From a virus: a stretch of 56,566 nucleotides of DNA. Both the position numbers and the translations under genes were made by a program. The DNA lies in the IMG/VR virus record IMGVR_UViG_3300045988_014023, positions 1 through 56,566 of that record. One strand, 5' to 3'. Below the pieces are notes generated by a model, which was not told where the DNA came from, did no database searches, and saw nothing but the letters and a program-made list of their open reading frames with translations. Below are positions 9,640-52,820 of this stretch, one piece after another; positions within the stretch are counted from its first letter, which is position 1, and every line of letters starts with the position of its first letter.

Positions 9640-10439
9640 CTACAATCACCTCGTTTTTCCGCAATCTGCAACCAATAGTCGGAATCATTTTTCAACCAAT
9701 CAACATATTTTGGAATGTACCGAAAATCCGTATCGTCTGGATTCTTTTCTTGATAGTCACTCAAATATGCTTCTGTGGCTTTGTATAACAGCCGTGCAAT
9801 GTCCGGTTGGTTCTCTTCGATAACTTCTAGCACTTTATCCATCCAAGCTGTTTTAGAGGTACTATACGCTGTTTTCTTGGGGTATATATTAAAAGTCTTT
9901 TTCCATGCATCGTCAAAATCAAAAAAATCTCCGGAATCGGTCGACGGCGAATTTTCTTTTATATTTTCTTTATCTCTATCTTCTTCTTTTTCTTCTTCTT
10001 TATCTGAAACAGCGACGTCAGACGATTTATCGGGCGATTTTTGTTCAATTAGATTTTTCTGTTTCTTTCTGCGATTCTGCTGATATAGCCTGTCACGTTC
10101 CTTTTTCTTCTCATAAGCATCAAGTGTCTGGTGCTTATTCCAATTCGGAATCGTTATCACGCTGTCAACAACTTCAATCATTCCAAACTCTTCAAAGGTC
10201 TTAAGCGCAAGCCTTACCGTGTTTAAATCTCTGCGAAAAATGGTGGCAAGCATTTCATCCGTGAACGGTAATTTGTTGCTCATCATAAACACACCGTTGT
10301 TATTCTGTTTTCCAGCAAGAATGAGAAGTTTGAACCAAATCGTAATGATGCTATCCGCACTCGGCATACTCTCAATCAGCAGAATCTTTTCATCATCAAA
10401 GACATCTGTTGTGATCTTAATCCACTTGACTTCTGCCAT
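9636..10439 (-). CDS. Phage replisome organizer (N-terminal domain) / DnaD-like
   Basis: 267 aa. The N-terminus MAEVKWIKITTDVFDDEKILLIESMPSADSIITIWFKLLILAGKQNNNG matches the replisome-organizer pattern. Sits directly upstream of dnaB. Confidence 0.8.
   Translation of the reverse strand: MAEVKWIKITTDVFDDEKILLIESMPSADSIITIWFKLLILAGKQNNNGVFMMSNKLPFTDEMLATIFRRDLNTVRLALKTFEEFGMIEVVDSVITIPNWNKHQTLDAYEKKKERDRLYQQNRRKKQKNLIEQKSPDKSSDVAVSDKEEEKEEDRDKENIKENSPSTDSGDFFDFDDAWKKTFNIYPKKTAYSTSKTAWMDKVLEVIEENQPDIARLLYKATEAYLSDYQEKNPDDTDFRYIPKYVDWLKNDSDYWLQIAEKRGDCS
10011..10027 (+). repeat. Iteron copy inside the replisome-organizer gene (AGCGACGTCAGACGATT)
   Basis: The 17-mer is identical to 49143-49159. 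A GGGCGATTT near-repeat follows. Confidence 0.6.
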
Positions 10440-13902: not shown

Positions 13903-14688
13903 CTAATCTTTCATAAAGTCCGGTACGTTCTCGTCATTCTCAACGACTTCTCCGGCTACTTTCTCTGGCTCGACTGCTGCACTTTCGGTTGAACAAGGTT
14001 CCGCCGTAACAAATGGCTCACTGTTGGCGTTCTCCGTAATATCACGCTTGACCTGTTTCTGTAAATCTTCCATCGGATATTCCTTGAAATCGCCATCCTC
14101 GATTTCTTCCTTGGTATAAAGTCCCATTGTCAGTTCTGGGCAATTCAGACTAGAGAAAAAGGATGCCGCTCTGTAACGAAGCATTAACTGTGGCATGGTT
14201 TTCCACTTGCTACCGTTCTTCTTCGTCCAACCTTCATCATCTGCCATCTGCATATTAACTTCCATGCCCTCAATTCTTCGACCATTTTTCATAGTCCACG
14301 CAGTGCAAGAATAAGGTTTTCCGTTCTTGCCCTTGGTTTCGTCGTACTGCAACTCCATGTCGAATTTGCTGCTAGCATTGATAGACGCGATCAAAAACTT
14401 ACTGCTCCAGCTTGGCTTGCCCTGTATCAGAAAAAGGTTCTGCATAACCATAAGTGGGCTGATGTGCATTCTCTGCGCCTGCTCAATGGCGATCAAACAG
14501 TTAGATGGATTTTTCTGATACGTCTGCGGAACTATTGTTGACTCGGCTAACGCTTTTGCCATCTGCATAGCCATGATGAAATTGTCGGATGTTCCGAAAA
14601 TTCCAAGGCTGTAATCGGTAACCTTGTTGTTGTGTGTCGCAACCTCTGTCTTTTCTTCTGCCTTTACTAATTCTGCGTTCTCTGCCAT
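13903..14688 (-). CDS. recT: RecT-family single-strand annealing protein
   Basis: 261 aa. ...NCLIAIEQAQRMHISPLMVMQNLFLIQGKPSWSSKFL...MPQLMLRYRAASFF fits the RecT pattern. Confidence 0.75.
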   Translation of the reverse strand: MAENAELVKAEEKTEVATHNNKVTDYSLGIFGTSDNFIMAMQMAKALAESTIVPQTYQKNPSNCLIAIEQAQRMHISPLMVMQNLFLIQGKPSWSSKFLIASINASSKFDMELQYDETKGKNGKPYSCTAWTMKNGRRIEGMEVNMQMADDEGWTKKNGSKWKTMPQLMLRYRAASFFSSLNCPELTMGLYTKEEIEDGDFKEYPMEDLQKQVKRDITENANSEPFVTAEPCSTESAAVEPEKVAGEVVENDENVPDFMKD

Positions 14689-14694
14689 AATTAT

Positions 14695-14919
14695 TTATTC
14701 CTCGCTTTCTCCGGCATCTACCGGCTCTTCATACTTTTTCACAACCGCCACCTTATCAGCACCGTAGGTCTCCACCCACTTCATATCCACGATTTCATCT
14801 GTAACTGCCAGCTTTGCACACTTAGCATTTACAACCGTGTCACCGGCTTTTACGGAATCCTCGGTCTTAAAGATGTAACTGCGTGTGCTGTTTGGGTATT
14901 TTGCTTTGATATACTGCAT
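14695..14919 (-). CDS. Hypothetical protein
   Basis: 74-aa ORF in the operon. Confidence 0.45.
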   Translation of the reverse strand: MQYIKAKYPNSTRSYIFKTEDSVKAGDTVVNAKCAKLAVTDEIVDMKWVETYGADKVAVVKKYEEPVDAGESEE

Positions 14920-14921
14920 AA

Positions 14922-15098
14922 TTACCTCTCCTTTTTCACATATCCATTTGACAAATTTTCAAGAATACGCAAAAGTCTTTCGTTTGTTTCTGAGACTTTT
15001 CTAAGTTTTTCTATATGGCTATATTTATTACGCTCAAGGTCATTTACCCTTGTTCGCAAATCCGAGTTTTCAGCCTTCAACTTTTCAATATCATCCAT
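14922..15098 (-). CDS. Hypothetical coiled-coil protein
   Basis: Track ORF 14922..15224. The likely start is MDDIEKLK (GAGAGG RBS). Confidence 0.4.
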   Translation of the reverse strand: MDDIEKLKAENSDLRTRVNDLERNKYSHIEKLRKVSETNERLLRILENLSNGYVKKER

Positions 15099-15265
15099 GT
15101 ACACGACCTCTCTTTCCTTTATTTCTCGCGTCTTTTTCGCAATACGGAAGAGAACAATGTCCGTCTCTTCCCCAGAACCCTTTACTTGCACTCTTCCAAC
15201 GCTTGCACGACATACACCGTGCATCCGGCTGTGTGATGTTGTTGCTTGTCCCTACTCTTGACATT

Positions 15266-17263
15266 CTACACACCCTCCACTTTCAACTGTTTGTCCTTGG
15301 AAACCGTCAGAAGAATTAGCTGGGTATCAACGACCGGCACATATTCGTCATTGATGCTCTCAGCACCATCAAGGAAGATAGGAACATACATATTAAAGAA
15401 CTTCTGAAAACTGTTGCAAATATCAATCTTCGCTTCAATTTCTCTGCCAGTGTTAGTCGTGTCACCGAACACCTTGTAAATGCCAGCTTCTTCATCAAGC
15501 ACCGTAGGAATACAAACTTCCTTATATTCTCCGTTTTTCTGGAAATCGAACAACTTCCAACGTACAATACCGAAATGCTGATTGATTTCTTCAACAAGTA
15601 ACTTATCCTTTCGTTTTGAAACTTCTTTGAGCTGATAAAGAATCCTCTCGGCATCTGCCTTTGCTTGTCCATACTCGCTCTGTTTATGTTGCATATCTGC
15701 AATCTGTTCATCAATGCGAACATTGTTTTCAGCCTGTGCAATAATCTTATTTACTTCATCAAGCTGGCTCTTTAATTTTGTAATATCAGCTTTTGCGTAA
15801 TCAGCCGCCTTATCTGTGCCCTTGGATTCTAACTCTGCAATATCAGCAAGCAATTTATCCTGTTTAGCCTTTAACTTGGCATATTCAGCGTTCTGCATAC
15901 AATAAGCGAAAGACGGAATCTCAGAAATCTGTTCATCGAATTTCTTGATAATGTCAATTTCTTCCGCTTCGTGCAGTTTCAAGGCGTTAATCATGTTTTC
16001 TAATTTCTTGTTATCCTTGGTCAACTTCTTAATCATTTCAGCACACGCATTTCCATCATCAACAATCATGGCAAGTGTTTTCGCGTGTTCTTCATTAAAT
16101 ATTTCGATTGCATCTGCCTTTCTCTGCGAAAAATCGGCTCTTAAAGACTCTATTTTATCTTCTGGCAACTTCTGACCGCACAGTGAACAAACAGTGCTAT
16201 TTTCATCAAATACCCACTTGGAATCATCAAACTTCTTTTCCTTTTCCTCTTTGTACTTTTTTACAAGGTCGGCTTTCTTAATAGTCTGTTCGGAAATTGT
16301 TTTCTTATTTCTTTCAATGGAATCCTGCGCTTTTCTGATAGATGAACGAACATCCTCTAACTTCCGTTCGTGGTTATATTTTTGATTTTCAATCTCACGT
16401 TTCTTGCTTGAAAGTTCGTCATTCATGGTCTGCGCGATAGCTGACATTTCAAACTGACAATGCATTTCTTCGCTGCGCATTTCATCAATCCGAACATCAG
16501 ATTTCGCCATTAAATCTTCAAGTGCTTCAATCTTTCTCTCTAAGTCGGCTTTCAATAACTCCTGCTCCGCCACATCTACATCAACCTTTGCTTTCTCCAG
16601 CCCGATGATCTGATTTGGAATAGCGTCTAACTGCTCAACCGCCTTTTTCTTGGAAGCGTTATTCATGGCTTCAATTTCCTCGAATTTATAAGATTCAAGT
16701 AGTTTTGCAACATCGGCTGTATCTTTGCACATTTTCGCAATCTCTAAATCTGTTTTTGCACTTGCCATAGCGAATAAGGATTTTCTCATTTCATCCTGTT
16801 TTTTCTTCAACGACAAATCCTTAGTGAACGCATTCGGGTGCGAACAAATGAGGAATTTATCAAACTCAAACCCTAATTCTTCCAGATATGCCTTAAAATC
16901 ACGTTCTGTCTTAGGCACAGAATTGATCTCATATGTATTTGTGATAGTAACTTTCGAAACTCCATTTTTATCCGGTTTTCCAACTTTTCGCTTCTGCATC
17001 TTGGAAAGAGTGATTTCTTTTCCACCTACATCGACAGTTGCAGTAACGGTTGGAATGCAATCTTCTGCATTGTCCGGTTTGATGTTCGGGTTGCTTGTAA
17101 GTTCATAGTTCTTATCAGAAATCAGCCAGTACCATGCCGCCCCGATTGTGGTCTTTCCTCTCCGGTTCATGCCGGAAACCCTTGTTGTCTTGCCAAATTC
17201 GTATGTCTTATCCTTTACCCCTTTGAAATTCTCTATATGTAACGATTTCAAAATCATTCGCAT
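15266..17263 (-). CDS. AAA/SMC-like ATPase (RecF/SbcC/Rad50-like)
   Basis: 665 aa. N-terminal LHIENFKGV...GMNRRGKTT (Walker A), a long coiled-coil middle, and C-terminal IFLDGAESI (Walker B/D-loop-like). Confidence 0.8.
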   Translation of the reverse strand: MRMILKSLHIENFKGVKDKTYEFGKTTRVSGMNRRGKTTIGAAWYWLISDKNYELTSNPNIKPDNAEDCIPTVTATVDVGGKEITLSKMQKRKVGKPDKNGVSKVTITNTYEINSVPKTERDFKAYLEELGFEFDKFLICSHPNAFTKDLSLKKKQDEMRKSLFAMASAKTDLEIAKMCKDTADVAKLLESYKFEEIEAMNNASKKKAVEQLDAIPNQIIGLEKAKVDVDVAEQELLKADLERKIEALEDLMAKSDVRIDEMRSEEMHCQFEMSAIAQTMNDELSSKKREIENQKYNHERKLEDVRSSIRKAQDSIERNKKTISEQTIKKADLVKKYKEEKEKKFDDSKWVFDENSTVCSLCGQKLPEDKIESLRADFSQRKADAIEIFNEEHAKTLAMIVDDGNACAEMIKKLTKDNKKLENMINALKLHEAEEIDIIKKFDEQISEIPSFAYCMQNAEYAKLKAKQDKLLADIAELESKGTDKAADYAKADITKLKSQLDEVNKIIAQAENNVRIDEQIADMQHKQSEYGQAKADAERILYQLKEVSKRKDKLLVEEINQHFGIVRWKLFDFQKNGEYKEVCIPTVLDEEAGIYKVFGDTTNTGREIEAKIDICNSFQKFFNMYVPIFLDGAESINDEYVPVVDTQLILLTVSKDKQLKVEGV

Positions 17264-17265
17264 TA

Positions 17266-17850
17266 TTACACCCCCACGATTCCTTTTATTGATAACTCAT
17301 ATGTAACTTTTTCCACAACGCAACCATCTTTACACGTTTTCTTATATCTCCTGCTCTGCAATCTGCCGTATGCGCTTACCTTATCGCCTAAAGCAAGTGA
17401 GTCCGTATACTCTGCACACTTTCCCCATGTAATGCAAGTAATTAAATCCTCTTTTCCATTTTCTCTTAAGGTTTTGAGTTTCACATCACAGATTTTACGA
17501 CCAAGTGGTGTTTCTCTAAGCTGCTTTTCCTCGATAATTCCATCAAGGCTTACTTCATTCAAAGGGCTATCGTCCTCTGGTTTTGTGATTGTATCAGCCA
17601 TAACATATGTAAGAATGGCTTTTCCGGGTCCTGTTTTTACGCGCCTGGTAATTATCTTCCCACTGACGAATACTGTTCCGCTGATTTCTGTATCGCTAAT
17701 TTCTTTGTCAAACAGTACCGGAAGTATATCTGCAACACCGCTTTTTCTTTCAACTCCGATGAAAAATTTATAAAAAATCTTACCGCTTGATTTATGGCTT
17801 TCCCTTGGTGCTGATACAACATCACCGATCAGTGTTATTTTGTTCTCCAT
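17266..17850 (-). CDS. ssb: SSB-like protein with two OB-fold-like halves
   Basis: Start set at MENKITLIGDVV (GGAAGGAG RBS). ITLIGDVVSAP... and ...VSAYGRLQSRRYKK resemble SSB OB-fold edges. Confidence 0.55.
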   Translation of the reverse strand: MENKITLIGDVVSAPRESHKSSGKIFYKFFIGVERKSGVADILPVLFDKEISDTEISGTVFVSGKIITRRVKTGPGKAILTYVMADTITKPEDDSPLNEVSLDGIIEEKQLRETPLGRKICDVKLKTLRENGKEDLITCITWGKCAEYTDSLALGDKVSAYGRLQSRRYKKTCKDGCVVEKVTYELSIKGIVGV

Positions 17851-17991
17851 TGCTTCTCCTTCCCATTTCTCTGTCAAGAACCTTTTCAAAATTATCTTTA
17901 TCATTCTGTTTCTTTCGTTTCCCTGCCAAAAGTTCAGCAAGCATACGCTTTTCTTTCGTGGAACATCTCGTGCCACTTATATACACAACGC

Positions 17992-18222: not shown

Positions 18223-18981
18223 TCATGCTCCTTTCAGAAACTTGTTTACAAAGTAAACCTGTCCTTTTCCGGTAACTTTCGTTGTCTTTGTAATTCTTAC
18301 GGAACCGTCCGGATTCTGAATGTTGCTTTCCTTAACCTCGAACAGTCCCTGTTCCACATATCTCTGTTTTGGCATGTTCCTAGAAGTACCGCTTTTAATA
18401 AGGAAGTTATTCTCTCTCAACCACTCAAATAACCGCTTCTGTCCTATCTGCACACCGTTCTGACAAATCAGCTTTGCTAAATCTCCAATGAGGATTGATG
18501 TATGGCTTGCTGATACTGCATCAGCGAAAATCTCTTTAGGTATCATTCCTTGGATTCGTGAGTCCTGCATAGCAATGATATTGTTCTTTTCGTCAATCTT
18601 TCGTTGTGCCACCATAAGTGCCTTGGAAAGCAACTCTTCATCAGATAAGGTTTCCTGTCCTGCTATGTAACCGCCATTCTTACGGATTGACGGAAGGACT
18701 TCATGCGTAATCCATCTTTTAAAATCTTTGGCTTCTCTTTTTCTGCTTGCAAGTACCAATGAGTAAAGACCGTATTCGTTTACACAGTTTGTCTCTCCAC
18801 CAGATAACCCTAAATTAAATTTAGCCTTTTCATCATCGTCAATTCTTTGCATAGCCATTGTTGGGTTTGACAAATCTAACGACCTGCATATGTCACTTGC
18901 GACAAACCAAGGCTCATTATCTTTAGTAATTGTCCGAATCTCTCCAAACTCTTCCGAATTAAAAATCTGTAATTCGTTCAT
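18223..18981 (-). CDS. ant: Bro-N / KilAC-type antirepressor
   Basis: 252 aa. IFNSEEFGEIRTITKDNEPWFVASDICRSLDL...FKRWITHEVLPSIRKNGGY is a Bro-N domain. The C-terminal half is antirepressor-like. Confidence 0.85.
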   Translation of the reverse strand: MNELQIFNSEEFGEIRTITKDNEPWFVASDICRSLDLSNPTMAMQRIDDDEKAKFNLGLSGGETNCVNEYGLYSLVLASRKREAKDFKRWITHEVLPSIRKNGGYIAGQETLSDEELLSKALMVAQRKIDEKNNIIAMQDSRIQGMIPKEIFADAVSASHTSILIGDLAKLICQNGVQIGQKRLFEWLRENNFLIKSGTSRNMPKQRYVEQGLFEVKESNIQNPDGSVRITKTTKVTGKGQVYFVNKFLKGA

Positions 18982-20253: not shown

Positions 20254-20583
20254 ATGACATTAAAAGAAAGAGTTAAAGAATTGTGCGATGAAAACGGTGT
20301 AAAAAGCTACCAATTAGAGGAGTATTGCGGATTTGCAAAGGGATATTTGAGCAAGCTGGATCATCCAAATGTGGACAAAGTAAATGCAATAGCTGAATAT
20401 TTTGGTGTTTCTCTTGACTATCTCGTAAATGGTAAAGAAGACAGATTGGAAAAATATGCAAATATGTCAGCAAAATTAATGAAGGACGAAGAATTGACCT
20501 GCTCATTAAAGAAATATTTCAACTTATCAGACGCTAAAAAGAAACACGTTATTGAATTAATAAACCTATTAAGTGAGGAATAA
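20254..20583 (+). CDS. CI-like XRE-family repressor (no peptidase domain)
   Basis: 109 aa. LKERVKELCDENGVKSYQLEEYCGFAKGYLSKL...IAEYFGVSLDYLVNG is an HTH_3 pattern. One of very few plus-strand genes, divergent from the early operon. Confidence 0.7.
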   Translation: MTLKERVKELCDENGVKSYQLEEYCGFAKGYLSKLDHPNVDKVNAIAEYFGVSLDYLVNGKEDRLEKYANMSAKLMKDEELTCSLKKYFNLSDAKKKHVIELINLLSEE

Positions 20584-42225: not shown

Positions 42226-43974
42226 CTAATACCTCCTAAATGGGTTTACTGCCGCTTCTACCTTTGCTTGTGTTCCGCTTCGCATTTCGTTTTCAAACAA
42301 GGCAACTGAATCCGGTGCATCATCATGCTTTACTTTTCCACTTCTTGTCATGGTCGTAAGTTCTTTCATAAACTTGTAATATTGGCTCTGCCTGTCCATT
42401 TTATTGAAATCTCGGAAATAATAATCACGAATGATATTATCTCTCGCATTTTCCATTCGAGTTATTTTGTTTGAACAATTAAACTTGAACCGTGCGCTAC
42501 ATCTTCCGCCTTGCTTTTTTACAATGTCCATTACATCACGACCAAAATATTCTCCGGCACTGTTGCTCTCAAATGTAACCGTCTTTACGTTGTGCTTAAT
42601 AAGCATATTTGCGCATTCCGGCTTGGTAAACTGTGTTCCGGCATTATCAAACACTACATCTACGATATAAACCTCGTTGCCGTACACATATCCAATCGGC
42701 ATTGAGCAACTATCTTCTCCCTTATCAGCACTATCACAAGCCGCCATAATTGCATCTGGTTCTCGGTCAACAGGAAGTTCCTCAAAATAATTAAGCTCAT
42801 TCTCTGCAAACATTCGCCCTTTTGCTTCAAATGGTTCTTGCTGAAACTCTGCCGCCCACGTTTCTTCCGAAACAAGTTTTCTTTCCTTTTGGTAGTAACC
42901 GGTTGTGAATATCTTCCGCAATCCCTTTTTATCTTTTCGATAAATCTCCCAATTGCTTTCATCTGTGATCGGGTCAAGTGCCGGAATCGCAACTTCTTTC
43001 CATCTCCACTCCAATTCATCAGCTTTATTTTGTAAAGCCGTAATTGGGTCATACAAGCTGTATTTCGTTCCCTGTATGATAATAGGCGTTCCCTCTAATC
43101 GTCTACCAAGAACATCGTCTGTTACCTTCTCGCAAAGAAACTCTAATCTATCTCTATTTCGTGCTTCTTCATGGTTTTTAACACAGTCATCAATATAGAC
43201 AAGTACATTTGCTTCGGTACATCCTACGATTGCGCCATCAATCGGTCTACAAGTAAATGTTGGGAAGATATTTTTGCTTTTAAGGTCGATTGATAGATTT
43301 TCAGCACTTTTATAGTCCTTTTCGCCTATCTTTGTTGCTTCCGGGAAAACACTTAAGAATCTATTGTACGTGCTTTCTGTTTCAAAGCCTTGCAATAAGC
43401 CACCATAAAATCGCTTAACAAGTCCTTCGCCTTTTCCGACACCAAATATACTTCCGTCCGGGTCGCGTCCACCCATCATCTGCGCCAATTTCAGACCGCC
43501 TGTTGTTTTTCCGGTTCTTTTCGGTTGAGATACAGACAAAAAATCCAATTTTCCATCGTAAATCTCCTGGTATGCTCCGACTACAGGTTGTAGCACTTTT
43601 CTTCTCGGGAAATAAAATCTTTTCCATGGATCCTTTTCATCAATTTCAATGTAATAAAAAAAGCTGTCCACAAGATAGGCTGATTCATACATCAAAACAT
43701 CGTAAAATTGTTGAAGCACCTTGTATGTCGTATCATGTTCCCCGGCATACATTTCTAAGTCTGCAACTCTGCCACCTGTGTATTGCTTGACATAGCTTGC
43801 TATAAGTTGTTTCGCCCTTGCGGATATTTTCAATCCATAATCAACGTCATGCTCTGTCTTTAAGGCAACCGCTACGGCTTGTATGTATGCATCTATTACC
43901 TGTTCATCAACGCCTTTTCTCTGTATGTAGTTTTCATATCCATTTACTGCATTGATTAACTGCTTTGAAGCCAA
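42226..43974 (-). CDS. terL: Terminase large subunit
   Basis: 582 aa with a TTG start. Walker A-like SQPKRTGKTT, and a nuclease-domain Asp cluster ...IMAACDSADKGEDS... Confidence 0.85.
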   Translation of the reverse strand: MASKQLINAVNGYENYIQRKGVDEQVIDAYIQAVAVALKTEHDVDYGLKISARAKQLIASYVKQYTGGRVADLEMYAGEHDTTYKVLQQFYDVLMYESAYLVDSFFYYIEIDEKDPWKRFYFPRRKVLQPVVGAYQEIYDGKLDFLSVSQPKRTGKTTGGLKLAQMMGGRDPDGSIFGVGKGEGLVKRFYGGLLQGFETESTYNRFLSVFPEATKIGEKDYKSAENLSIDLKSKNIFPTFTCRPIDGAIVGCTEANVLVYIDDCVKNHEEARNRDRLEFLCEKVTDDVLGRRLEGTPIIIQGTKYSLYDPITALQNKADELEWRWKEVAIPALDPITDESNWEIYRKDKKGLRKIFTTGYYQKERKLVSEETWAAEFQQEPFEAKGRMFAENELNYFEELPVDREPDAIMAACDSADKGEDSCSMPIGYVYGNEVYIVDVVFDNAGTQFTKPECANMLIKHNVKTVTFESNSAGEYFGRDVMDIVKKQGGRCSARFKFNCSNKITRMENARDNIIRDYYFRDFNKMDRQSQYYKFMKELTTMTRSGKVKHDDAPDSVALFENEMRSGTQAKVEAAVNPFRRY

Positions 43975-45736: not shown

Positions 45737-45805
45737 ACCATCCATAAGTCTCCCATCGACCGGAACTATTGCAGTAGCACCCGACTAAGTGGAGATAAGG
45801 ATAAA

Positions 45806-45893
45806 CGCAGATATTCGGACTCGAACCGAAACACCGTTTCCGGCTACTGACTGTTTAGCAAACAGTTTCCTTGCCAATTAGGATTATATCTGC
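45806..45893 (-). tRNA. tRNA-Ser (anticodon GCU), type II
   Basis: Hand-folded: acceptor GCAGATA/TATCTGC, anticodon arm ACTGT-TTGCTAA-ACAGT, long variable arm, T-arm TTCGG-TTCGAGT-CCGAA. Confidence 0.75.
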
Positions 45894-45971
45894 ACGCGCC
45901 GGGCATGGAAGTTCCCTACCCGAACCATTCCTTGCGCTTCAGAATGGCACGGTTCTACTAACACCGCTCAA

Positions 45972-46043
45972 TGGCTTGTGGCGGTATCGAGCCGCCCTAT
46001 ACAGATTTTCAGTCTGTCGCTAATCCATCTCAGCTAACAAGCC
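45972..46043 (-). tRNA. tRNA-Phe (anticodon GAA)
   Basis: Acceptor GGCTTGT/ACAAGCC, anticodon arm ACAGA-CTGAAAA-TCTGT, T-arm GGCGG-CTCGATA-CCGCC (the T-loop is slightly atypical). Confidence 0.75.
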
Positions 46044-46234
46044 ATGTCGTGTAGTTTCCGTTTTTCCTTGTTCCACGCTACACTAAGTGCAAGGTTCTTT
46101 TAGTCAGCGGTTACCGCCATCTTTTGAATGACAACCGCTCAATCCAGTTACCTGTGCTAAGTTTAACCGGTATATTGATTAGCACCTGCATTTCTGTAAT
46201 AAACACACTAGGGGTGTACTGGCAACATCACCTG

Positions 46235-46305
46235 TGGGGATTACAGGAATCGAACCCGCGACAACCCGGATATAAGCCGTGTCTTCTGCCACTGAATTAA
46301 ACCCC
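46235..46305 (-). tRNA. tRNA-Ile (anticodon UAU) candidate
   Basis: Acceptor GGGGTTT/AATCCCC (one T-T mismatch), anticodon arm CACGG-CTTATAT-CCGGG (one A-G mismatch), T-arm GCGGG-TTCGATT-CCTGT. Confidence 0.55.
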
Positions 46306-46312
46306 AATGCAG

Positions 46313-46384
46313 TGATCGGTACGAGATTTGAACTCGTGTTACCACCGTGAAAGGGTGGTGTCTTGGCCACTTGACTAACCGATC
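46313..46384 (-). tRNA. tRNA-Glu (anticodon UUC)
   Basis: GATCGGT TA GTCAAGTGGCCAAGAC A CCACC-CTTTCAC-GGTGG TAAC ACGAG-TTCAAAT-CTCGT ACCGATC A. Close to the typical Firmicutes tRNA-Glu layout. Confidence 0.85.
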
Positions 46385-46517
46385 AAAGACACGCGGTCGA
46401 TTGTGACACCAATCCACGCCTGCTGTGACGCAATTTAAGTCTTTGCTATTCACATCCAAATAACCTAGGATAATCTCGCAAACCGGTAACGCGGGAATAA
46501 ATGGATGCTTTCGCTCA

Positions 46518-46609
46518 TGGGGAAGAGAGGAATTGAACCTCCAGCGTTTATACCACTTGGGAACTGATTTACAGTCAGCCGCAACACCGCCAATCGTTGC
46601 CGCTTCCCC
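46518..46609 (-). tRNA. tRNA-Tyr (anticodon GUA), type II
   Basis: Acceptor GGGGAAG/CTTCCCC, D-stem GCAA/TTGC, anticodon arm GCTGA-CTGTAAA-TCAGT, ~20-nt variable arm, T-arm GGAGG-TTCAATT-CCTCT. Confidence 0.75.
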
Positions 46610-46836
46610 AGAACCGCCACAAGACGGTTAGCAATATGTTTTACGTGCTATGCGTTACACGATCATGCGCCGTGGGATAGACGCATGATAGAATACCACC
46701 GGACGGTCTCGCACCGTACTTAACAGAATCGTCCTAGTGGCGAAAGGAGGAACCCAAATGCTTGAATCACTCAACCAAGGGTTCAAGTACGTATGGAAAA
46801 CATACGTGGCTACATGGAACGTCAACATGTAACCAA

Positions 46837-46907
46837 TTAGGCTACCGGGATTCGAACCCGGAATGCAGGAATCAAAATCCTGTGTCTTACCGCTTGGCGA
46901 TAGCCCA
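46837..46907 (-). tRNA. tRNA-Gln (anticodon UUG)
   Basis: TGGGCTATCGCCAAGCGGTAAGAC... with anticodon arm CAGGA-TTTTGAT-TCCTG and T-arm CCGGG-TTCGAAT-CCCGG. Resembles Firmicutes tRNA-Gln. Confidence 0.8.
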
Positions 46908-47061: not shown

Positions 47062-47421
47062 TCAATATCTCCCATCCTCAAAGCTGTGTTCCTGTTTGAA
47101 TCGTTCCATTTCACTTACGCTCATACCGAAGATCCCGGCAGATGAATCAGAGTCCGTATGTTCGAAATACTCCCCTGTTTTTGGAAACATGAACCGGAAC
47201 ATGGCATAATTCGCAACATCACACAGATATTCAAGGTTCCCGGTCTCTTCAAACTTGGCAAGATTCATTTTCAAACTTTCGATTGCATCCACATTCCCGT
47301 TTGCAAAATTCATTATTGCCGGTCCGTATTTGTAATATGACTGCTCAATCAATCCTTTGCGTTTTTCATCAAAGGTTTCGGAATACTCGGTTTTCATCAA
47401 CTCATTGCCGCAGCTTGCCAT
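47062..47421 (-). CDS. Hypothetical protein (possibly a nucleotide pyrophosphohydrolase-associated domain)
   Basis: 119 aa. ...KYGPAIMNFANGNVDAIESL...NLEYLCDVANYAMF. Start/stop coupled to the MazG-like gene. Confidence 0.45.
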   Translation of the reverse strand: MASCGNELMKTEYSETFDEKRKGLIEQSYYKYGPAIMNFANGNVDAIESLKMNLAKFEETGNLEYLCDVANYAMFRFMFPKTGEYFEHTDSDSSAGIFGMSVSEMERFKQEHSFEDGRY

Positions 47422-47828
47422 TACACATCACCTTCCGCTCTGTGGTTTGCTCTTTCAATGTCAAAACCTTCCGGATAACGCGACTTAAGCTTGTCTACGT
47501 TCATTTGCATGATTTCATCAAGGCTCCAGCCGAAGGATTCGCAAAGCATTGCAAGATACCAACAAATATCGCCAGCTTCTTTCTTAGCATGGTCAATATC
47601 AAGCTGTTTCTCGTGAAAAATCCATTTTTTGATTATGTCGTTAAATTCTCCAACTTCACCGGATAGTCCAAGGCAAGCATTAAAGATTCCGCCAAGGTCG
47701 TAATCTTGCAACGATGCGATATTGTTCTTCTTGCAAGATTTAAGCAAATCAAGTTTATCCGAAATTCTTTCTGTTGCCTTGCGATCATTTGTCCGCATGG
47801 CTAATGACTGATACTCATTTCCGGTCAT
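47421..47828 (-). CDS. mazG: MazG-like nucleoside triphosphate pyrophosphohydrolase
   Basis: 135 aa. EYQSLAMRT...LGLSGEVGEFNDIIKK...EAGDICWYLAML...NVDKLKSRYPEGF is the MazG signature. Confidence 0.85.
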   Translation of the reverse strand: MTGNEYQSLAMRTNDRKATERISDKLDLLKSCKKNNIASLQDYDLGGIFNACLGLSGEVGEFNDIIKKWIFHEKQLDIDHAKKEAGDICWYLAMLCESFGWSLDEIMQMNVDKLKSRYPEGFDIERANHRAEGDV

Positions 47829-49142: not shown

Positions 49143-49193
49143 AGCGACGTCAGACGATTGTGTCGTGTTATGTCAGACGATTGTCAGACGATT
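49143..49193 (+). repeat. Iteron cluster: GTCAGACGATT x3 (49149, 49172, 49183) in a non-coding AT-rich region; candidate origin
   Basis: The repeats were read directly. The first copy extends to a 17-mer identical to 10011-10027. Preceded by a polypurine tract at ~49098-49130. Confidence 0.55.
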
Positions 49194-49396
49194 TTTTGTA
49201 AAAACTGATACTATTCTATCATTTTTGGACTTGTCAAAGACCTAATGAACCTAGCCTTGTTTATAAAGATTTAAGAAAAGTTTTATAGTTTGTTTACAGT
49301 TTTTCGGAGATTTTTTAAGATATGCCCGGTAGAGTTGTTGATTTTGGACATGGCAAAAAAGAAAAGGCAGCCGGAAAACTGCCCTTGTCCAATCTT

Positions 49397-49909
49397 TTAT
49401 TTATCCTGTTTATCATCCTCGGTCGGAATCACTGACCAACCTTTATAACTATATCCGGGGCGTTGCCCTTCTGGAAGTGTCCCAAGAACCGATCTTTTAA
49501 CGCGGCTCAACCCCGCAATTATATTAAAAAATTGCTTGCTGTCCGGCTCTACTCCAAAATATTTATTGCAATTTTCCCTAAGCCAAAAGGACAGGGAGTG
49601 AATATAAAAGTGCTCTCCCTCTGGGCTTACTAAATGCCAATCTATCGCCGCCCTGTTTGTTTCAAACCGTCCGGATTTCGGACTGTTCTTTGCGGCTTCT
49701 GTAGCTTTTCGCTGTATTTCTGTATTTCGCGGATTCGCGCGCCTTGTTTCTGACATCCTGCGCTTGCTCTCTTCGGAGCGCTTTAACCCCGTATGTGTTT
49801 GGCTCAAATGTATCAACCGGCATTCTTTCGAGCAGGTCACAATGTCACGCGATGATTCGCAATAAAACTCTTTCCCGCAGACAACGCATTTTTTTACAAC
49901 TTTAGCCAT
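49397..49909 (-). CDS. NUMOD3-like/Zn-ribbon DNA-binding protein (homing-endonuclease-associated motifs)
   Basis: 170 aa. CVVCGKEFYC...CSKEC ribbon, then GLKRSEESKRRMSETRR (NUMOD3-like). Confidence 0.45.
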   Translation of the reverse strand: MAKVVKKCVVCGKEFYCESSRDIVTCSKECRLIHLSQTHTGLKRSEESKRRMSETRRANPRNTEIQRKATEAAKNSPKSGRFETNRAAIDWHLVSPEGEHFYIHSLSFWLRENCNKYFGVEPDSKQFFNIIAGLSRVKRSVLGTLPEGQRPGYSYKGWSVIPTEDDKQDK

Positions 49910-49964
49910 GTTTTTATTTGCTCCTTAATGCAGAATAGCGGAGCTTATCGGCTCCGCTAGCCTT

Positions 49965-50387
49965 TTATTTGTTCAATGTAAAAGTGTATTCGCCCTGGAA
50001 TTCATCATCTGTAACCCATTCAATTTTTACTGCCTTTTCTTCCTCTGAAAGTTCTTTTCCAAGTTTTCCGAGTGGTATAAAATCTACAACTAAATTCGCA
50101 TACCCATCTTCCTTTTGTAATTTAACAGACTTCAATTTCAAGCCTGAAACGCCGCCAAGATCATAATCTTTTATGATCTGATCAAAGCCTTTCTCTATTG
50201 TGTCTATTAAAGTTTCACCCGTGATTTCCCGATAGTTTGCAGTGCCGCTTGTATAATATGGGGCGTAATATCTCCACACGGTTTTTTCTGTTACTTCCGT
50301 GTTCAGATCAGCGGCTTTCTTAGCAGCCTTTTCTTTGTTGTCATAACTCCATTCAATGCCCCGATCTTTTACAATATATTTTTTCAT
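49965..50387 (-). CDS. Hypothetical protein
   Basis: 140-aa ORF downstream of the palindrome-containing promoter at 50442-50470. Confidence 0.5.
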   Translation of the reverse strand: MKKYIVKDRGIEWSYDNKEKAAKKAADLNTEVTEKTVWRYYAPYYTSGTANYREITGETLIDTIEKGFDQIIKDYDLGGVSGLKLKSVKLQKEDGYANLVVDFIPLGKLGKELSEEEKAVKIEWVTDDEFQGEYTFTLNK

Positions 50388-50441
50388 GGTGTTTCTCCTT
50401 TCTTGGCTTTCGCCGTTGCTCTGTTTTCTTGATCTGTCATT

Positions 50442-50470
50442 ATAATATCATGAGTGCCTTATAATGTCAA
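50442..50470 (-). promoter_or_regulatory. Promoter TTGACA-17-TATTAT with the 13-bp palindrome in its spacer
   Basis: Minus strand: -35 = rc(50465-50470), -10 = rc(50442-50447). Operator copy 1 (50450-50462) fills the spacer. Confidence 0.5.
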
Positions 50471-50496
50471 GTGATATTTTTCAAAAAGTGCCTTAT
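50450..50496 (+). repeat. Two degenerate copies of the palindrome ATAAG-TGC-CTTAT (50450-50462, 50484-50496)
   Basis: ATGAGTGCCTTAT and AAAAGTGCCTTAT. Each differs from the consensus at one base. Confidence 0.7.
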
Positions 50497-50499
50497 ATT

Positions 50500-50697
50500 T
50501 TATTTTAATCTCTCCAACTGCTCTAACTGGATCAACACCGCCTCTTTTATAAAGGCGTTTATACTTTTTCCGCTTACTTTCTTGATCCGTTCTTTTGTCC
50601 CGGATGGCAACAGGCAATTAACACGGTCTACTGTTTTTGTATACTTAGCTACTGCTTGCCGCCTTTGTTCGGTCTGTTTTTCTGTATATTCTGCCAT
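50500..50697 (-). CDS. Ribbon-helix-helix (Arc/CopG-like) DNA-binding protein
   Basis: 65 aa. ...VDRVNCLLPSGTKERIKKVSGKSINAFIKEAVLIQLE fits a beta-strand plus two helices RHH pattern. Confidence 0.5.
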   Translation of the reverse strand: MAEYTEKQTEQRRQAVAKYTKTVDRVNCLLPSGTKERIKKVSGKSINAFIKEAVLIQLEQLERLK

Positions 50698-50731
50698 TTG
50701 TTTTCCTCCCTGCTTTTATATATGTACTTTA

Positions 50732-50760
50732 AATATAGCATAAGTGCCTTATTATAGCAA
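50732..50760 (-). promoter_or_regulatory. Promoter TTGCTA-17-TATATT for the RHH gene with the palindrome in its spacer
   Basis: Minus strand: -35 = rc(50755-50760), -10 = rc(50732-50737). Operator copy 3 (50740-50752) is centred in the spacer. Confidence 0.5.
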
Positions 50761-50894
50761 GGATTATTTTTCTTTCTATATTATAGTAATCCTATAAATG
50801 TTTTATAAATAAGTGCCTTATGTATTATTCACAATTCCATTGATATTATAAGTGCCTTATTTTGTTTATTTCGCATATTGCATAAGTGCCTTAT
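50740..50894 (+). repeat. Four perfect copies of ATAAGTGCCTTAT (50740, 50809, 50848, 50882)
   Basis: Read directly. All copies are in the same orientation (asymmetric centre TGC), within the divergent intergenic region. Confidence 0.85.
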
Positions 50895-50906
50895 ATTTAC
50901 TATAAT
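50878..50906 (+). promoter_or_regulatory. Promoter TTGCAT-17-TATAAT for the plus-strand island; palindrome copy 6 overlaps the -35 and spacer
   Basis: -35 at 50878-50883 and -10 at 50901-50906. Confidence 0.55.
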
Positions 50907-50944
50907 ACAAGTATCAAATGAAGTACGAAAGCGAGGAGAACAAC

Positions 50945-51121
50945 ATGAAAGATATGAAAGCGGCAGAAGCATTATTAGAAAGCAAAGGTTATTATATTTC
51001 GAACCAGTTTGACGGTTTCGCTACTCTTCCAGATGAATACGAATTGAGCGACGTAAACGGAAACGTTGTTATTGATCATTTGAGCGAAGCACAGATTTTA
51101 CAGATTTCGGAAATTTTATAG
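50945..51121 (+). CDS. Hypothetical protein (58 aa)
   Basis: Track ORF 50918..51121. The start was moved to the ATG after the GAGGAG RBS. Confidence 0.5.
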   Translation: MKDMKAAEALLESKGYYISNQFDGFATLPDEYELSDVNGNVVIDHLSEAQILQISEIL

Positions 51122-51134
51122 GGAGGGCTTAAAC

Positions 51135-51332
51135 ATGAGAAAGACGGGAATGCGTTTTACATGGGAAACAACAAAGAACGGTGACGCGATCAACGAACTG
51201 AAAAAGAACGGAATCGCGTTTGAGTATAACCACTTCGGGGAACTCACAGCCGACTTTTACGGAATCGGCATTTTTGAAAAAGTCGATTTTGAACACGTCC
51301 AAGGCGATGTATTTGAAATCTGCATAGCATAG
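51135..51332 (+). CDS. Hypothetical protein
   Basis: 65-aa ORF with a GGGAGGG RBS. Confidence 0.5.
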   Translation: MRKTGMRFTWETTKNGDAINELKKNGIAFEYNHFGELTADFYGIGIFEKVDFEHVQGDVFEICIA

Positions 51333-51410
51333 CCGAAACGCTCCAAGATCGGAGCGTCAGCCGTGGGATGGTCGCCCGGCTCTGATGATGGCAGACCAGA
51401 AAGGGAAAAT

Positions 51411-51572
51411 ATGAAGAATTGGACAATGGAACAATTATATGACCTTTGGAGGAATCGAGGATATACGAAAAAAGTAGCGCAGGCGAAAGCTGAAAAAGAC
51501 TACAAGGAAATGCACCGAAAGAAATCGGACATAGAACAGCATCAGACCATGCAAGAAATGCTTTACAACTAA
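51411..51572 (+). CDS. Hypothetical protein (53 aa)
   Basis: Track ORF 51363..51572 trimmed to MKNWTMEQLYDLW (AAGGGA RBS). Confidence 0.45.
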   Translation: MKNWTMEQLYDLWRNRGYTKKVAQAKAEKDYKEMHRKKSDIEQHQTMQEMLYN

Positions 51573-51657
51573 GTCGAAACCGCCCACGCGGCGGTCTGCA
51601 GGAACTGCCCCACCTGCACCGATGAGACAGGGCGCACAATGAATGGAGGAAATAAAC

Positions 51658-51987
51658 ATGAAAAAGAAAATCTTAGCCATTGTATTAGCTGCAGTTACCC
51701 TTGTAAACCTTGCACCAGCAACAACGGAAGCAAAGGCCGCGCGCACCTACAAAGTGCGCGGAACCGTACGGAATTTTAGTTATACCTATACCTACGAGGA
51801 CGGTGAAAAGCTGACCGGGAAAGGCTTTGACATTTACACGGCAGACGGTAACATCTGGGAAATGTCCGACACGGACACCGACTTGCATTTTAAAGACGGA
51901 CAGAAAGTTATTGTTAAGATCAGCGACAACGGCATGCCAAAGGATAAAACCGATGATCGTATTATATCGGTTAAAAAAGCAAAATAA
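51658..51987 (+). CDS. Secreted small protein (signal peptide)
   Basis: Start at MKKKILAIVLAAVTLVNLAPATTEAKAA (GGAGGA RBS). Confidence 0.55.
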   Translation: MKKKILAIVLAAVTLVNLAPATTEAKAARTYKVRGTVRNFSYTYTYEDGEKLTGKGFDIYTADGNIWEMSDTDTDLHFKDGQKVIVKISDNGMPKDKTDDRIISVKKAK

Positions 51988-51995
51988 AGCACTTA

Positions 51996-52014
51996 GGGCG
52001 GTACTCTTCCGCCC
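51996..52014 (+). terminator. GC-rich hairpin after the secreted-protein gene
   Basis: GGGCGG-TACTCTT-CCGCCC followed by CTTTCC, a short and imperfect U-tract. Confidence 0.4.
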
Positions 52015-52041
52015 CTTTCCGCGTGCCTGGTGGCGTTGTGA

Positions 52042-52066
52042 GCCGGTTCGATTCCGGCGGCGTGGA
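52042..52066 (+). other. Isolated tRNA T-arm-like hairpin plus 3' strand (GCCGG-TTCGATT-CCGGC-GGCGTGG-A)
   Basis: The T-arm consensus is perfect, but no matching 5' acceptor, D arm or anticodon arm is found upstream. Confidence 0.3.
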
Positions 52067-52369
52067 TTTATTAACCGATGGTCATATATTGGGACTGCAT
52101 CGGGTTATATGGCGGCATATTGCCGTCACACGGCGCGCCGCAGCCGTAAATAATCGCGGTTGATCTGCTTTAATGCAGACGCAAGACACGCGGGAAAGCT
52201 CGTTTCTACCGTTCTATCATTAAGAGCGGCGGCAAGATCGCAAGCCGTCACTATTGCGGCACTTTGGAGCTTGTGCATCTCCAACAAAAAACAGATTGCA
52301 CACCGTTCCGCCGGATGCGGACATATAACGCGCATTGACAAATAAACACGATATAAGGAGGTGTGAAAG

Positions 52370-52615
52370 ATGGGGAAATATGAGTATATCGGCAAAAGGG
52401 AAGTCATGCGCCGGGTGGATGCTCTTGGCTATCCTGTGGAATCCGGCAAAATGTGCGGCTATTCCAAATTTGAGGGCGTGGAATGGGTGGAGTCTGCAAA
52501 AATCAAAATAACCGCCCAACGTGGCGGCGATTGGTTGCAGATCACGCAAAGACCGGAAAACATAACACACACTTACAGTCGGTACGATGGGAAAAACTAT
52601 CTTGACAAGTGGTAA
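52370..52615 (+). CDS. Hypothetical protein
   Basis: 81-aa ORF with a strong AAGGAGGTG RBS. Confidence 0.55.
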   Translation: MGKYEYIGKREVMRRVDALGYPVESGKMCGYSKFEGVEWVESAKIKITAQRGGDWLQITQRPENITHTYSRYDGKNYLDKW

Positions 52616-52820
52616 AATGCGGTCTATGCTAGACTATAACTACAGCCGGGCAAGCGTCTTCTGGCGTTTGCCTGTGATCTGCAACACCGTCAAATATCAT
52701 CAATGAATTATCTATATATGACATAACATATAGTGTATTTGTGTTATTTGCGAAATGCCGAAGATAATTGCACGTTTGTTACACGTTTTTGAGAATCCGT
52801 GAAAATGGAATCTCGACCCC

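Follow-up and report, generated by a model that had tools for sequence, protein, structure and literature searches.

The DNA analysed here is a stretch of 56,566 nucleotides from a virus (IMG/VR record IMGVR_UViG_3300045988_014023, positions 1 to 56,566), referred to below as the window, which represents a complete or nearly complete temperate tailed phage with most of its genes on the minus strand. Between positions 50,442 and 50,906 it carries a small gene, predicted to encode a repressor of the ribbon-helix-helix (RHH) family, surrounded by six copies of a 13-bp sequence, some of which lie within readable promoters. Here, we discuss these sites, their conservation in related phages, the assignment of the protein and the genes that the node may control.

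The predicted RHH locus and its 13-mer sites

The elements of the locus are as follows.

50500..50697, minus strand: predicted repressor gene of the RHH family, 65 amino acids; open reading frame with a strong ribosome-binding site (GGAGGA), encoding an N-terminal helix followed by strand-helix-helix
50882..50894, plus strand: site A, ATAAGTGCCTTAT, perfect; overlaps the -35 element and spacer of promoter P3
50848..50860, plus strand: site B, ATAAGTGCCTTAT, perfect; 34 bp from site A, an auxiliary site upstream of P3
50809..50821, plus strand: site C, ATAAGTGCCTTAT, perfect; abuts a possible extra minus-strand promoter
50740..50752, plus strand: site D, ATAAGTGCCTTAT, perfect; in the promoter of the RHH gene itself (P2), at the exact centre of the spacer
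50484..50496, plus strand: site E, AAAAGTGCCTTAT, one mismatch; lies between the RHH stop codon, 3 nt before it, and the -35 element of P1, 14 bp after it
50450..50462, plus strand: site F, ATGAGTGCCTTAT, one mismatch; exact centre of the P1 spacer
50470 to 50442, minus strand: promoter P1, TTGACA-17-TATTAT with TG (promoter scan, 11/12); predicted to drive 49965-50387 and 49397-49909
50760 to 50732, minus strand: promoter P2, TTGCTA-17-TATATT with TG (promoter scan, 9/12); predicted promoter of the RHH gene
50878-50906, plus strand: P3, TTGCAT-17-TATAAT (read from the sequence, 9/12 in all); candidate promoter of a divergent island of small genes
50809 to 50780, minus strand: possible extra promoter, TTTATA-18-TATAAT (promoter scan); adjoins site C

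The four perfect copies (50740, 50809, 50848 and 50882) and the two with one mismatch (50450 and 50484) were found exactly as an earlier note on this DNA had described them, all in one orientation. They fall within 445 bp, and the window holds no other copy with one mismatch or fewer. When two mismatches are allowed, there are 11 matches in the window against 1.52 ± 1.21 in shuffled sequences (largest 4; none of 100 shuffles reached 11), and the five outside the cluster each carry two mismatches. Since the sequences flanking the copies are only 61-74% alike, the repeated unit is the 13-mer itself. Its arms, ATAAG and CTTAT, are perfect inverted repeats, whereas the central TGC is asymmetric; the palindrome that had been claimed is thus approximate only, and each site has an orientation. 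Read along the coding strand of the RHH gene (minus), the 13-mer is ATAAGGCACTTAT. Relative to the RHH ATG the sites start at -197, -163, -124, -55, +201 and +235 (numbered on locus L001, which has the same sites and spacing as the window).

Repeats of one orientation in an AT-rich stretch (25-34% GC) could also be iterons of a replication origin. The spacings are irregular, though (34, 39, 69, 256 and 34 bp), the sites coincide with promoter elements, and the replisome-organiser and DnaB genes lie 40 kb away with no initiator gene adjacent to the array, all of which makes this reading exceedingly improbable.

In both P1 and P2 the 13-mer fills the middle 13 bp of the 17-bp spacer, and both promoters were recovered by the scan. 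P3, the third of the site-bearing promoters in the earlier note, is weaker than was implied there: its -35 element matches at 3/6 positions only, which makes it the weakest of the three calls and accounts for its absence from the scanner's list. Because the region as a whole is rich in promoter-like matches (16 in 49300-52800, against 6.9 ± 2.8 in shuffles), single matches mean little alone and the comparative data carry the weight.

We put at roughly three in four the probability that the 65-amino-acid product acts as an RHH repressor under its own control, with the 13-mers for operators, and that it gates two flanking accessory units. The autoregulated control node for an accessory region that the earlier note had envisaged thereby gains support from a conserved cassette, from promoter-embedded sites and from covariation between the sites and the predicted DNA-reading strand of the protein.

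Conservation of the cassette in related phages

Around 100 distinct relatives from Lachnospiraceae phages share the layout of the window, with three to five sites upstream of the RHH gene and one or two downstream, of which one lies in the promoter of the RHH gene and another in a near-consensus promoter that directly follows the gene. All six sites are present in near-identical phages. Where the protein is 60-70% identical, relatives still have 3-5 upstream sites in the same orientation and 1-2 downstream sites despite different flanking genes, and those with 66-70% identical proteins and the strand VNCL[LF]P keep the form ATAA[GA]GCACTTAT, in five copies upstream and one or two downstream. 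As the genes flanking the cassette are unrelated between these loci, the conserved unit is the RHH gene together with its sites. Lack of conservation of the copies in relatives had been named beforehand as grounds for abandoning the proposal; across these relatives the copies are conserved while the flanking genes change.

The placement of the sites within promoters is likewise shared. The downstream site (homologue of site F) lies inside a promoter of at least 11/12 in 77 of the 85 distinct loci that have a site after the gene, and 52 of those 77 promoters are a perfect TTGACA-17-TATAAT, whereas 11/12 is attained by just 24 of 5000 random windows. The site in the promoter of the RHH gene (homologue of site D), located between TTGACA or TTGAAA and TATAAT, sits in a promoter of at least 9/12, and up to 12/12, in 64 of 83 loci. 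On the divergent side, the homologue of site A overlaps a -35 element of the TTGTAT or TTGCTT type, and the two distal sites are 34-36 bp apart across subfamilies. The site directly after the RHH stop codon (homologue of site E) is also kept. In one clade (L041) the RHH gene takes second place in an operon, and the promoter region ahead of the operon contains the three sites, one of them centred in TTGCTT-17-TATAAT and one over the -35 element of a divergent TTGTAT-17-TATAAT. A search from the DNA side, using the double-site pattern, recovered only contigs that bear the RHH gene.

Two further sequence elements were seen near or resembling the sites. Several relatives (L019, L028, L005, L062, L095 and L146) have a conserved TTGTGCA(A/T), with the inverted core GTGC, about 10 bp upstream of the third site; with the GCAC of that site it forms TTGTGC-N11-GCACAA in some loci, and its counterpart in the window, at 50822-50838, is degenerate (TTGTGA). 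In the window, ATAAAGCACTTAG occurs at 51984-51996 (plus strand), at the stop codon of a 114-amino-acid gene of the divergent island. It differs at one position from ATAAAGCACTTAT, a site variant of the relatives, and points the opposite way from the six sites. The match may represent a weak seventh site or have arisen by chance.

Covariation of the sites with the predicted DNA-reading strand

Among the relatives, the sequence of the sites changes with the predicted DNA-reading beta-strand of the protein, across at least seven specificity classes.

Strand DRVNCL[LF]P: site ATAA[GA]GCACTTAT
Strand DRVNCQ[FL]P: site ATTA[GA]GCACAAAT or ..CACACAT
Strand DRVNCMFP: site ATAAAGCACACAT
Strand ERVNCRFA: site ATAAGGCACAAAA
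Strand YRLNIVFP: site AT[AT]ACGCACATAT
Strand YRLNLTFP: site ATAACGCACTTAT
Strand DRVNVRLP: site ATATGGCACATAT
Strand DRIAVNLP: site ATATATAAGTTGAAT, an unrelated motif

Residue 29 of the protein follows position 10 of the site, which is T with leucine or threonine and A with glutamine, methionine, arginine or valine. The outer boxes of the site are symmetric or nearly so in several subfamilies (for example ATAT..ATAT and ATAA..TTAT). A strict recognition code of one residue to one base was considered and rejected, as the L041-43 clade breaks the rule for residue 29 and position 10.

These data bear on the question of whether the RHH protein is the factor that binds the sites. A host regulator or another phage protein might do so instead, the RHH gene being merely one of the genes under its control, and both the uniform orientation of the sites despite a presumably symmetric protein and the lack of a direct Pfam RHH match for the 65-amino-acid protein lend this some credit. 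Yet the RHH gene is the sole constant neighbour of the sites while the flanking genes vary, the sites change with its beta-strand among phages of a single bacterial family, Lachnospiraceae, and the phage has no copy of the motif elsewhere. We consider binding by another factor improbable.

Family assignment of the 65-amino-acid protein

The protein matches two PHROGs of unknown function (phrog_31631 at E 7.7e-13), and a protein 98% identical to it is named 'ParG' at NCBI. Its AlphaFold2 model (predicted local distance difference test score, pLDDT, 85) has helices at residues 3-22, 34-42 and 46-64 and an extended segment at 23-33; this is the strand-helix-helix topology of about 40 residues that defines RHH proteins, preceded by an additional N-terminal helix.

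Pfam scans of 19 close homologues gave no RHH match, and a profile built from the same 19 recovered, among 1.8 billion proteins, 631 clusters at the 50% identity level with E <= 0.001. Among 100 family members retrieved at E <= 1e-7, Pfam matches were found to Arc (best 8.2e-9), RHH_5, CB_ParB_C (five members), RHH_1, ParG, NikA-like and RepB-RCR_reg, all of which are RHH families, and one member matched PSK_trans_fac. When profiles were compared with the sequences in the PDB, the top four matches of profile A1 were RHH proteins (three PutA entries and AmrZ), and profile A2 gave one spurious top match followed by Arc, AmrZ, HP0222 and PutA. The E-values were 0.057 for Arc, 0.098 for AmrZ and 0.22 for PutA, with Arc, AmrZ, HP0222 and PutA together spanning 0.06-0.75. 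Alignment with hhalign gave E 0.0023 to Arc and 0.00065 to ParG, the best profile match (the ParG sequence was checked against 1P94).

All profile alignments share one register, in which V23-D-R-V-N-C-L-L-P31 corresponds to Arc M7-P-Q-F-N-L-R-W-P15, so that R25 is equivalent to Arc Q9, N27 to Arc N11 and L29 to Arc R13. Arc Q9, N11 and R13 are the base-contacting residues in the Arc-operator structure, and the varying residue 29 is the one that aligns with R13. The topology of the model and the profile searches indicate that the protein probably belongs to the RHH (MetJ/Arc) superfamily. For the description of the gene as RHH-like in the earlier note, the support is indirect and comes from the profile searches and the modelled topology, the window protein itself having given no Pfam RHH match.

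The ParG name and the ParG profile match, together with the five family members that match CB_ParB_C, could point to a different role for the protein, as the adaptor of a partition system that binds the array as a centromere and recruits a ParA/ParF ATPase. Repression and centromere binding are combined in one RHH protein in the case of omega. No such ATPase was found here: the Walker A motif KGGxGK[ST] is absent from every frame of the window and of 157 related loci (679 kb in all), and Pfam scans of 49 further window proteins revealed no ParA. Furthermore, the sites are embedded in promoters and do not form a tight tandem array, and the phage, which encodes a tyrosine integrase and is found inside contigs of 433 and 546 kb, is evidently maintained by integration and not as the extrachromosomal low-copy replicon that a type Ib partition system would serve. 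The earlier note had rated a centromere-like or iteron array as an equal alternative and had proposed looking in relatives for a partition ATPase alongside the same palindrome. That parity is not upheld, as the 157 loci hold no ParA-type Walker A motif, the phage integrates and its replication module lies elsewhere (8.3-10.4 kb); partition is very unlikely to be the function of the node.

One relative (L019) has a further open reading frame of 116 amino acids at 371-721 (plus strand), 2.6 kb upstream of the main RHH gene. Over 49 residues its product shares 45% identity with the RHH protein, and it might encode a paralogous regulator.

The flanking transcription units

The two units that the node would control, one downstream of P1 and one divergent from the RHH gene, contain the following features.

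49965..50387, minus strand: gene for a 140-amino-acid protein, first of the P1 unit; no family match, database name hypothetical
49397..49909, minus strand: gene for a 170-amino-acid zinc-ribbon protein, second of the P1 unit; no significant Pfam match
49386 to 49363, minus strand: intrinsic terminator-like hairpin (10-bp stem, then a T run) ending the P1 unit
50945-51121, plus strand: island gene 1, 58 amino acids (open reading frame list)
51135-51332, plus strand: island gene 2, 65 amino acids (open reading frame list)
51331..51400, plus strand: type II hammerhead ribozyme (Rfam RF02276) between island genes 2 and 3
51411-51572, plus strand: island gene, 53 amino acids
51643-51987, plus strand: island gene, 114 amino acids; product with a hydrophobic, signal-peptide-like N-terminus
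51990-52369, plus strand: GC-rich non-coding stretch of 380 nt between the genes for the 114- and 81-amino-acid proteins
52370-52615, plus strand: island gene, 81 amino acids

The island at 50945-52615 consists of small plus-strand genes that run against the direction of most of the genome, and the sequences of its genes 1 and 2 are each present on at least 1000 contigs. No family of known function was matched at significant E in Pfam or PHROG by the RHH protein or nine of its neighbours; the sole function-labelled match is a partial one of the 170-amino-acid protein to an HNH-endonuclease PHROG, a protein whose source labels are YacG-like or 'DNA gyrase subunit A'. The same searches gave no significant family of known function for the window's cargo proteins together with 10 diverse ribozyme-flanking proteins of relatives, and association with a known anti-CRISPR or anti-defence gene was not recognised among them with Pfam and PHROG, the only databases used for this. 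In the databases the cargo proteins are called 'hypothetical' or bear structural labels (CcmE, YacG-like, for example).

Type II antitoxins are in many cases RHH repressors of their own promoters, and the PSK_trans_fac match of one family member is a reminder of this; the RHH protein might therefore be an autoregulating antitoxin, with the 140-amino-acid protein as its toxin. However, the RHH protein ends right after its second helix and so has no C-terminal tail for binding a toxin, and the 140-amino-acid protein matches no toxin family in Pfam or PHROG. The downstream gene has its own strong promoter and lies 113 bp away, and it is a different gene in different relatives, encoding 143 amino acids, 198 amino acids (GIY-YIG-like) or 51-66 amino acids at this position. 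A toxin-antitoxin pair is, in our view, highly unlikely.

Two non-coding features lie close to these units. The 380-nt stretch (about 55% GC) folds better than all of 100 shuffled versions (z = -2.8) and includes GCCGGTTCGATTCCGGC, which resembles a tRNA T-arm, at 52044-52060. The stretch has no match in Rfam and may be an unclassified structured RNA. On the minus strand at about 49145-49195, between the terminator of the P1 unit and a gene for a 224-amino-acid protein, three direct repeats of (A)ATCGTCTGAC stand just downstream of a promoter-like TTGACA (49237 to 49208). They differ from the 13-mer and are possibly the site of another regulator.

Hammerhead ribozymes in the divergent unit

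The hammerhead ribozyme of the island is a full-length match to RF02276 at 64.8 bits (gathering score 37), with the CUGAUGA, GAAA and GUC core present. Eight further matches at gathering level were found in seven of 20 diverse relatives scanned (L142 821-886; L036 1481-1548; L062 981-1046; L033 2042-2111; L017 1373-1440 and 1040-1108; L095 757-826; L154 658-725), and a scan for the core motif detected about 50 copies in about 45 of 158 sequences. In every RHH-oriented locus with a hammerhead, the copy lies upstream of the RHH gene on the opposite strand. Each ribozyme occupies a short interval separating small genes of high variability, and two sometimes stand in tandem. The stop codon of the preceding gene is 2-3 nt ahead of the GAAAC core, the ATG of the following one is about 22 nt past CUGAUGA, and the stems show compensatory changes. 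When the region was compared by BLAST with annotated phage records, only short matches were obtained, all of them to the hammerhead. Clustered hammerheads flanking variable prophage genes, including ardA, have been described before (Perreault et al. 2011, PMC3088659); the literature searched contained no link between prophage hammerheads and an RHH-gated promoter.

Phage context

The landmarks of the rest of the window are these.

100-1218, minus strand: tyrosine integrase, on the same strand as the early genes
8323-9552: DnaB
9636-10439: replisome organiser
within 13903-17904: RecT-like and SSB genes
18223-18981: Bro-N/KilAC antirepressor
20254-20583, plus strand: helix-turn-helix protein of Cro/CI type
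42226-43974: large terminase
45805-46907, minus strand: six tRNA genes (Ser-GCT, Phe-GAA, Ile-TAT, Glu-TTC, Tyr-GTA, Gln-TTG; Rfam confirms five)
47421-47828: MazG

The RHH node is placed between the early and replication genes and the packaging genes, with the tRNA cluster between it and the terminase. No obvious attachment site lies beside the integrase gene in the window. Database names and genome matches indicate Lachnospiraceae hosts (Roseburia, Eshraghiella, Acetivibrio ethanolgignens and Eubacterium). A search of the window shows that the 13-mer motif is absent from the Cro/CI-type helix-turn-helix region near 20 kb, in keeping with the earlier view that the node is separate from the main cI/cro switch.

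A node of this kind might confer secondary immunity, if the repressor of a resident prophage silenced the P1 and P3 units of incoming relatives in the manner of P22 immI. Arc and Mnt of P22 provide a precedent. PMC2724298 cites the action of Arc at Pant. Among closely related, mosaic phages, cassettes of differing protein and site specificity occupy the same genomic position, as is the case for immunity repressors, and autoregulation would keep the protein present in lysogens. On the other hand, nothing indicates that the cargo of P1 or P3 is needed for infection, and no antirepressor stands beside the node, the Bro-N/KilAC gene being located at 18223-18981. We hold a role in secondary immunity to be possible but doubtful.

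A model for the node

Written as ATAA-GTGCC-TTAT, the 13-mer shows an inverted pair of 4-bp boxes separated by 5 bp, with a central G:C on the dyad, and it overlaps P1, P2 and P3. Arc and CopG operators have the same design: two 4-bp inverted boxes 5 bp apart, a 13-bp pseudo-symmetric sequence with a G:C dyad and promoter overlap, with one dimer bound per half (Hernandez-Arriaga et al., PMC2724298). By analogy with this geometry, binding of two dimers per 13-mer is the likeliest arrangement, and a single dimer per site, centred on GGCAC, is the less likely alternative. A reading of the outer boxes by the beta-ribbon fits the comparative data, since it is the boxes, and not the GGCAC centre, that change with the residues of the strand.

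In the autoregulated-repressor model, occupancy of the different sites would have distinct consequences. Protein at site D in the P2 spacer would repress the RHH gene itself, and this negative feedback would set a steady level. Binding to site F in the P1 spacer, with site E 34 bp upstream, would repress the genes at 49965-50387 and 49397-49909, and binding to site A over the P3 -35 element, with site B 34 bp upstream, would repress the divergent island. Repression of these sigma-A-type promoters would presumably operate by occlusion of RNA polymerase. As a guess, sites B and E may stabilise binding at A and F, and the conserved N-terminal helix may be a candidate for dimer-dimer contacts.

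In a newly entered cell without the protein, the host-type promoters would be expected to fire at once, until accumulating repressor silenced them; in a lysogen their activity would be low. Such burst-then-shut-off control of accessory or establishment genes, suggested by analogy with Reg576 and Aca proteins, is less certain than repression itself. It is compatible with an immunity role, the two not being exclusive. A wider and more speculative proposal, which we would put forward as tentative at best, sees the node as an entry switch, widespread in Lachnospiraceae phages, in which an RHH family that diversifies in specificity (the 631 clusters) gates consensus host-type promoters, active on arrival and silenced afterwards, and the divergent operon is modular and holds rapidly exchanged small anti-defence or establishment genes separated by hammerheads. 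The hammerheads might then cut the transcript into single-gene mRNAs, or act as conserved recombination joints between cassettes.

Several observations weigh against the repressor model. Regarding the protein, the 65-amino-acid sequence has no Pfam match of its own, Foldseek with the monomer model (which lacks the inter-chain sheet) retrieved nothing from the PDB and only a family homologue from BFVD, and the profile matches to RHH proteins of solved structure have weak E-values (0.0007 to 0.2). With respect to the promoters, the poor -35 element of P3 has its parallel in the relatives, where the divergent promoters mostly reach 8-9/12, and no convincing promoter contains sites B, C or E. The covariation is imperfect, as the L041-43 clade has L29 with mixed CACA and CACT sites and Q29 proteins use two site variants; independent covariation events are also few, because many of the loci are related by descent. 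The uniform orientation of the sites is not explained by a near-symmetric site and a symmetric protein. RHH proteins usually need adjacent sub-sites for cooperative binding, whereas the 13-mers here are isolated at distances of 34-69 bp. Finally, the 'establishment gene' role is conjecture because the cargo has no recognisable function.

Implications

The analysis accounts for a conspicuous cluster of repeats and defines three probable transcription units and their likely regulator for this phage. It also suggests a probable function, that of an autoregulated multi-promoter repressor, and probable operators for a large protein family that is of 'unknown function' in PHROGs, absent from Pfam and frequent in Lachnospiraceae prophages of the human gut. 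For the recognition rules of RHH proteins, the natural run of variants in protein and site provides a ready data set. In addition, the cassette marks the adjacent variable small genes and hammerheads as a co-regulated unit, which offers a handle on early or anti-defence genes and on tests of prophage hammerheads. Should the entry-switch proposal be true, bacterial hammerheads would gain a defined promoter, regulator and inducible context for functional tests, and hundreds of small genes would be flagged as anti-defence candidates.

Comparison with known systems

The node resembles, in different respects, several known regulators of phages and plasmids. Arc and Mnt of the P22 immI region are, like the repressor proposed here, small phage RHH repressors that stand apart from the main immunity switch, with a 13-bp operator that overlaps divergent promoters (PMC2724298). 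The family profile aligns with Arc in register and some family members match Pfam Arc, although the window protein itself misses that model and has an extra conserved N-terminal helix. The P22 system has one operator, a second repressor and an adjacent antirepressor, whereas here six dispersed sites serve three promoters and neither a second repressor nor an adjacent antirepressor is present.

CopG of pMV158 is likewise an autoregulated RHH repressor whose 13-bp pseudo-symmetric target overlaps a promoter box and which excludes RNA polymerase (PMC2724298). It differs in acting at one promoter, in plasmid copy-number control, and in spreading over about 50 bp, in contrast to the separate sites at several promoters of a phage.

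The multi-promoter logic has its closest description in Reg576 of Bacillus pumilus p576, an autoregulated RHH repressor with repeated operators at four sigma-A promoters, some copies being placed in the promoter spacer, which gives transient expression of establishment genes such as ardC after plasmid entry (PMC6294495). Its operator is a dual direct heptamer (TTATCCC), its extra helix is C-terminal and it belongs to a conjugative plasmid, not a phage; no sequence relationship between Reg576 and the 65-amino-acid RHH family was detected.

Omega of pSM19035 and ParG of TP228 are RHH proteins that occupy short-repeat arrays at several promoters, as is proposed for the present protein, ParG being the best profile match. 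Both act in partition alongside a Walker ATPase, and the short repeats to which they bind are contiguous, unlike the isolated 13-mers found here; no such ATPase was detected in the window or the related loci.

Going by its published description, Aca14 offers a further parallel: it is a phage or prophage RHH protein with a helical extension that binds inverted repeats in two promoters, its own and the one of an adjacent operon made up of small anti-defence genes, and represses both (NAR 2026, gkag862; PMC13551039). Aca14 comes from Proteobacteria (Pasteurella), its repeat overlaps the -10 element, and it is defined by known acr genes, none of which is recognisable here. The placement and conservation of the sites show the arrangement typical of Aca regulators, with sites in the gene's own and in neighbouring promoters, at which the protein would be predicted to repress. 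The node is an uncharacterised member of a well-known class, the RHH autoregulators of mobile elements, to which it adds the breadth of its cassette conservation, a natural series of protein and site variants, and a tie to ribozyme-punctuated accessory operons.

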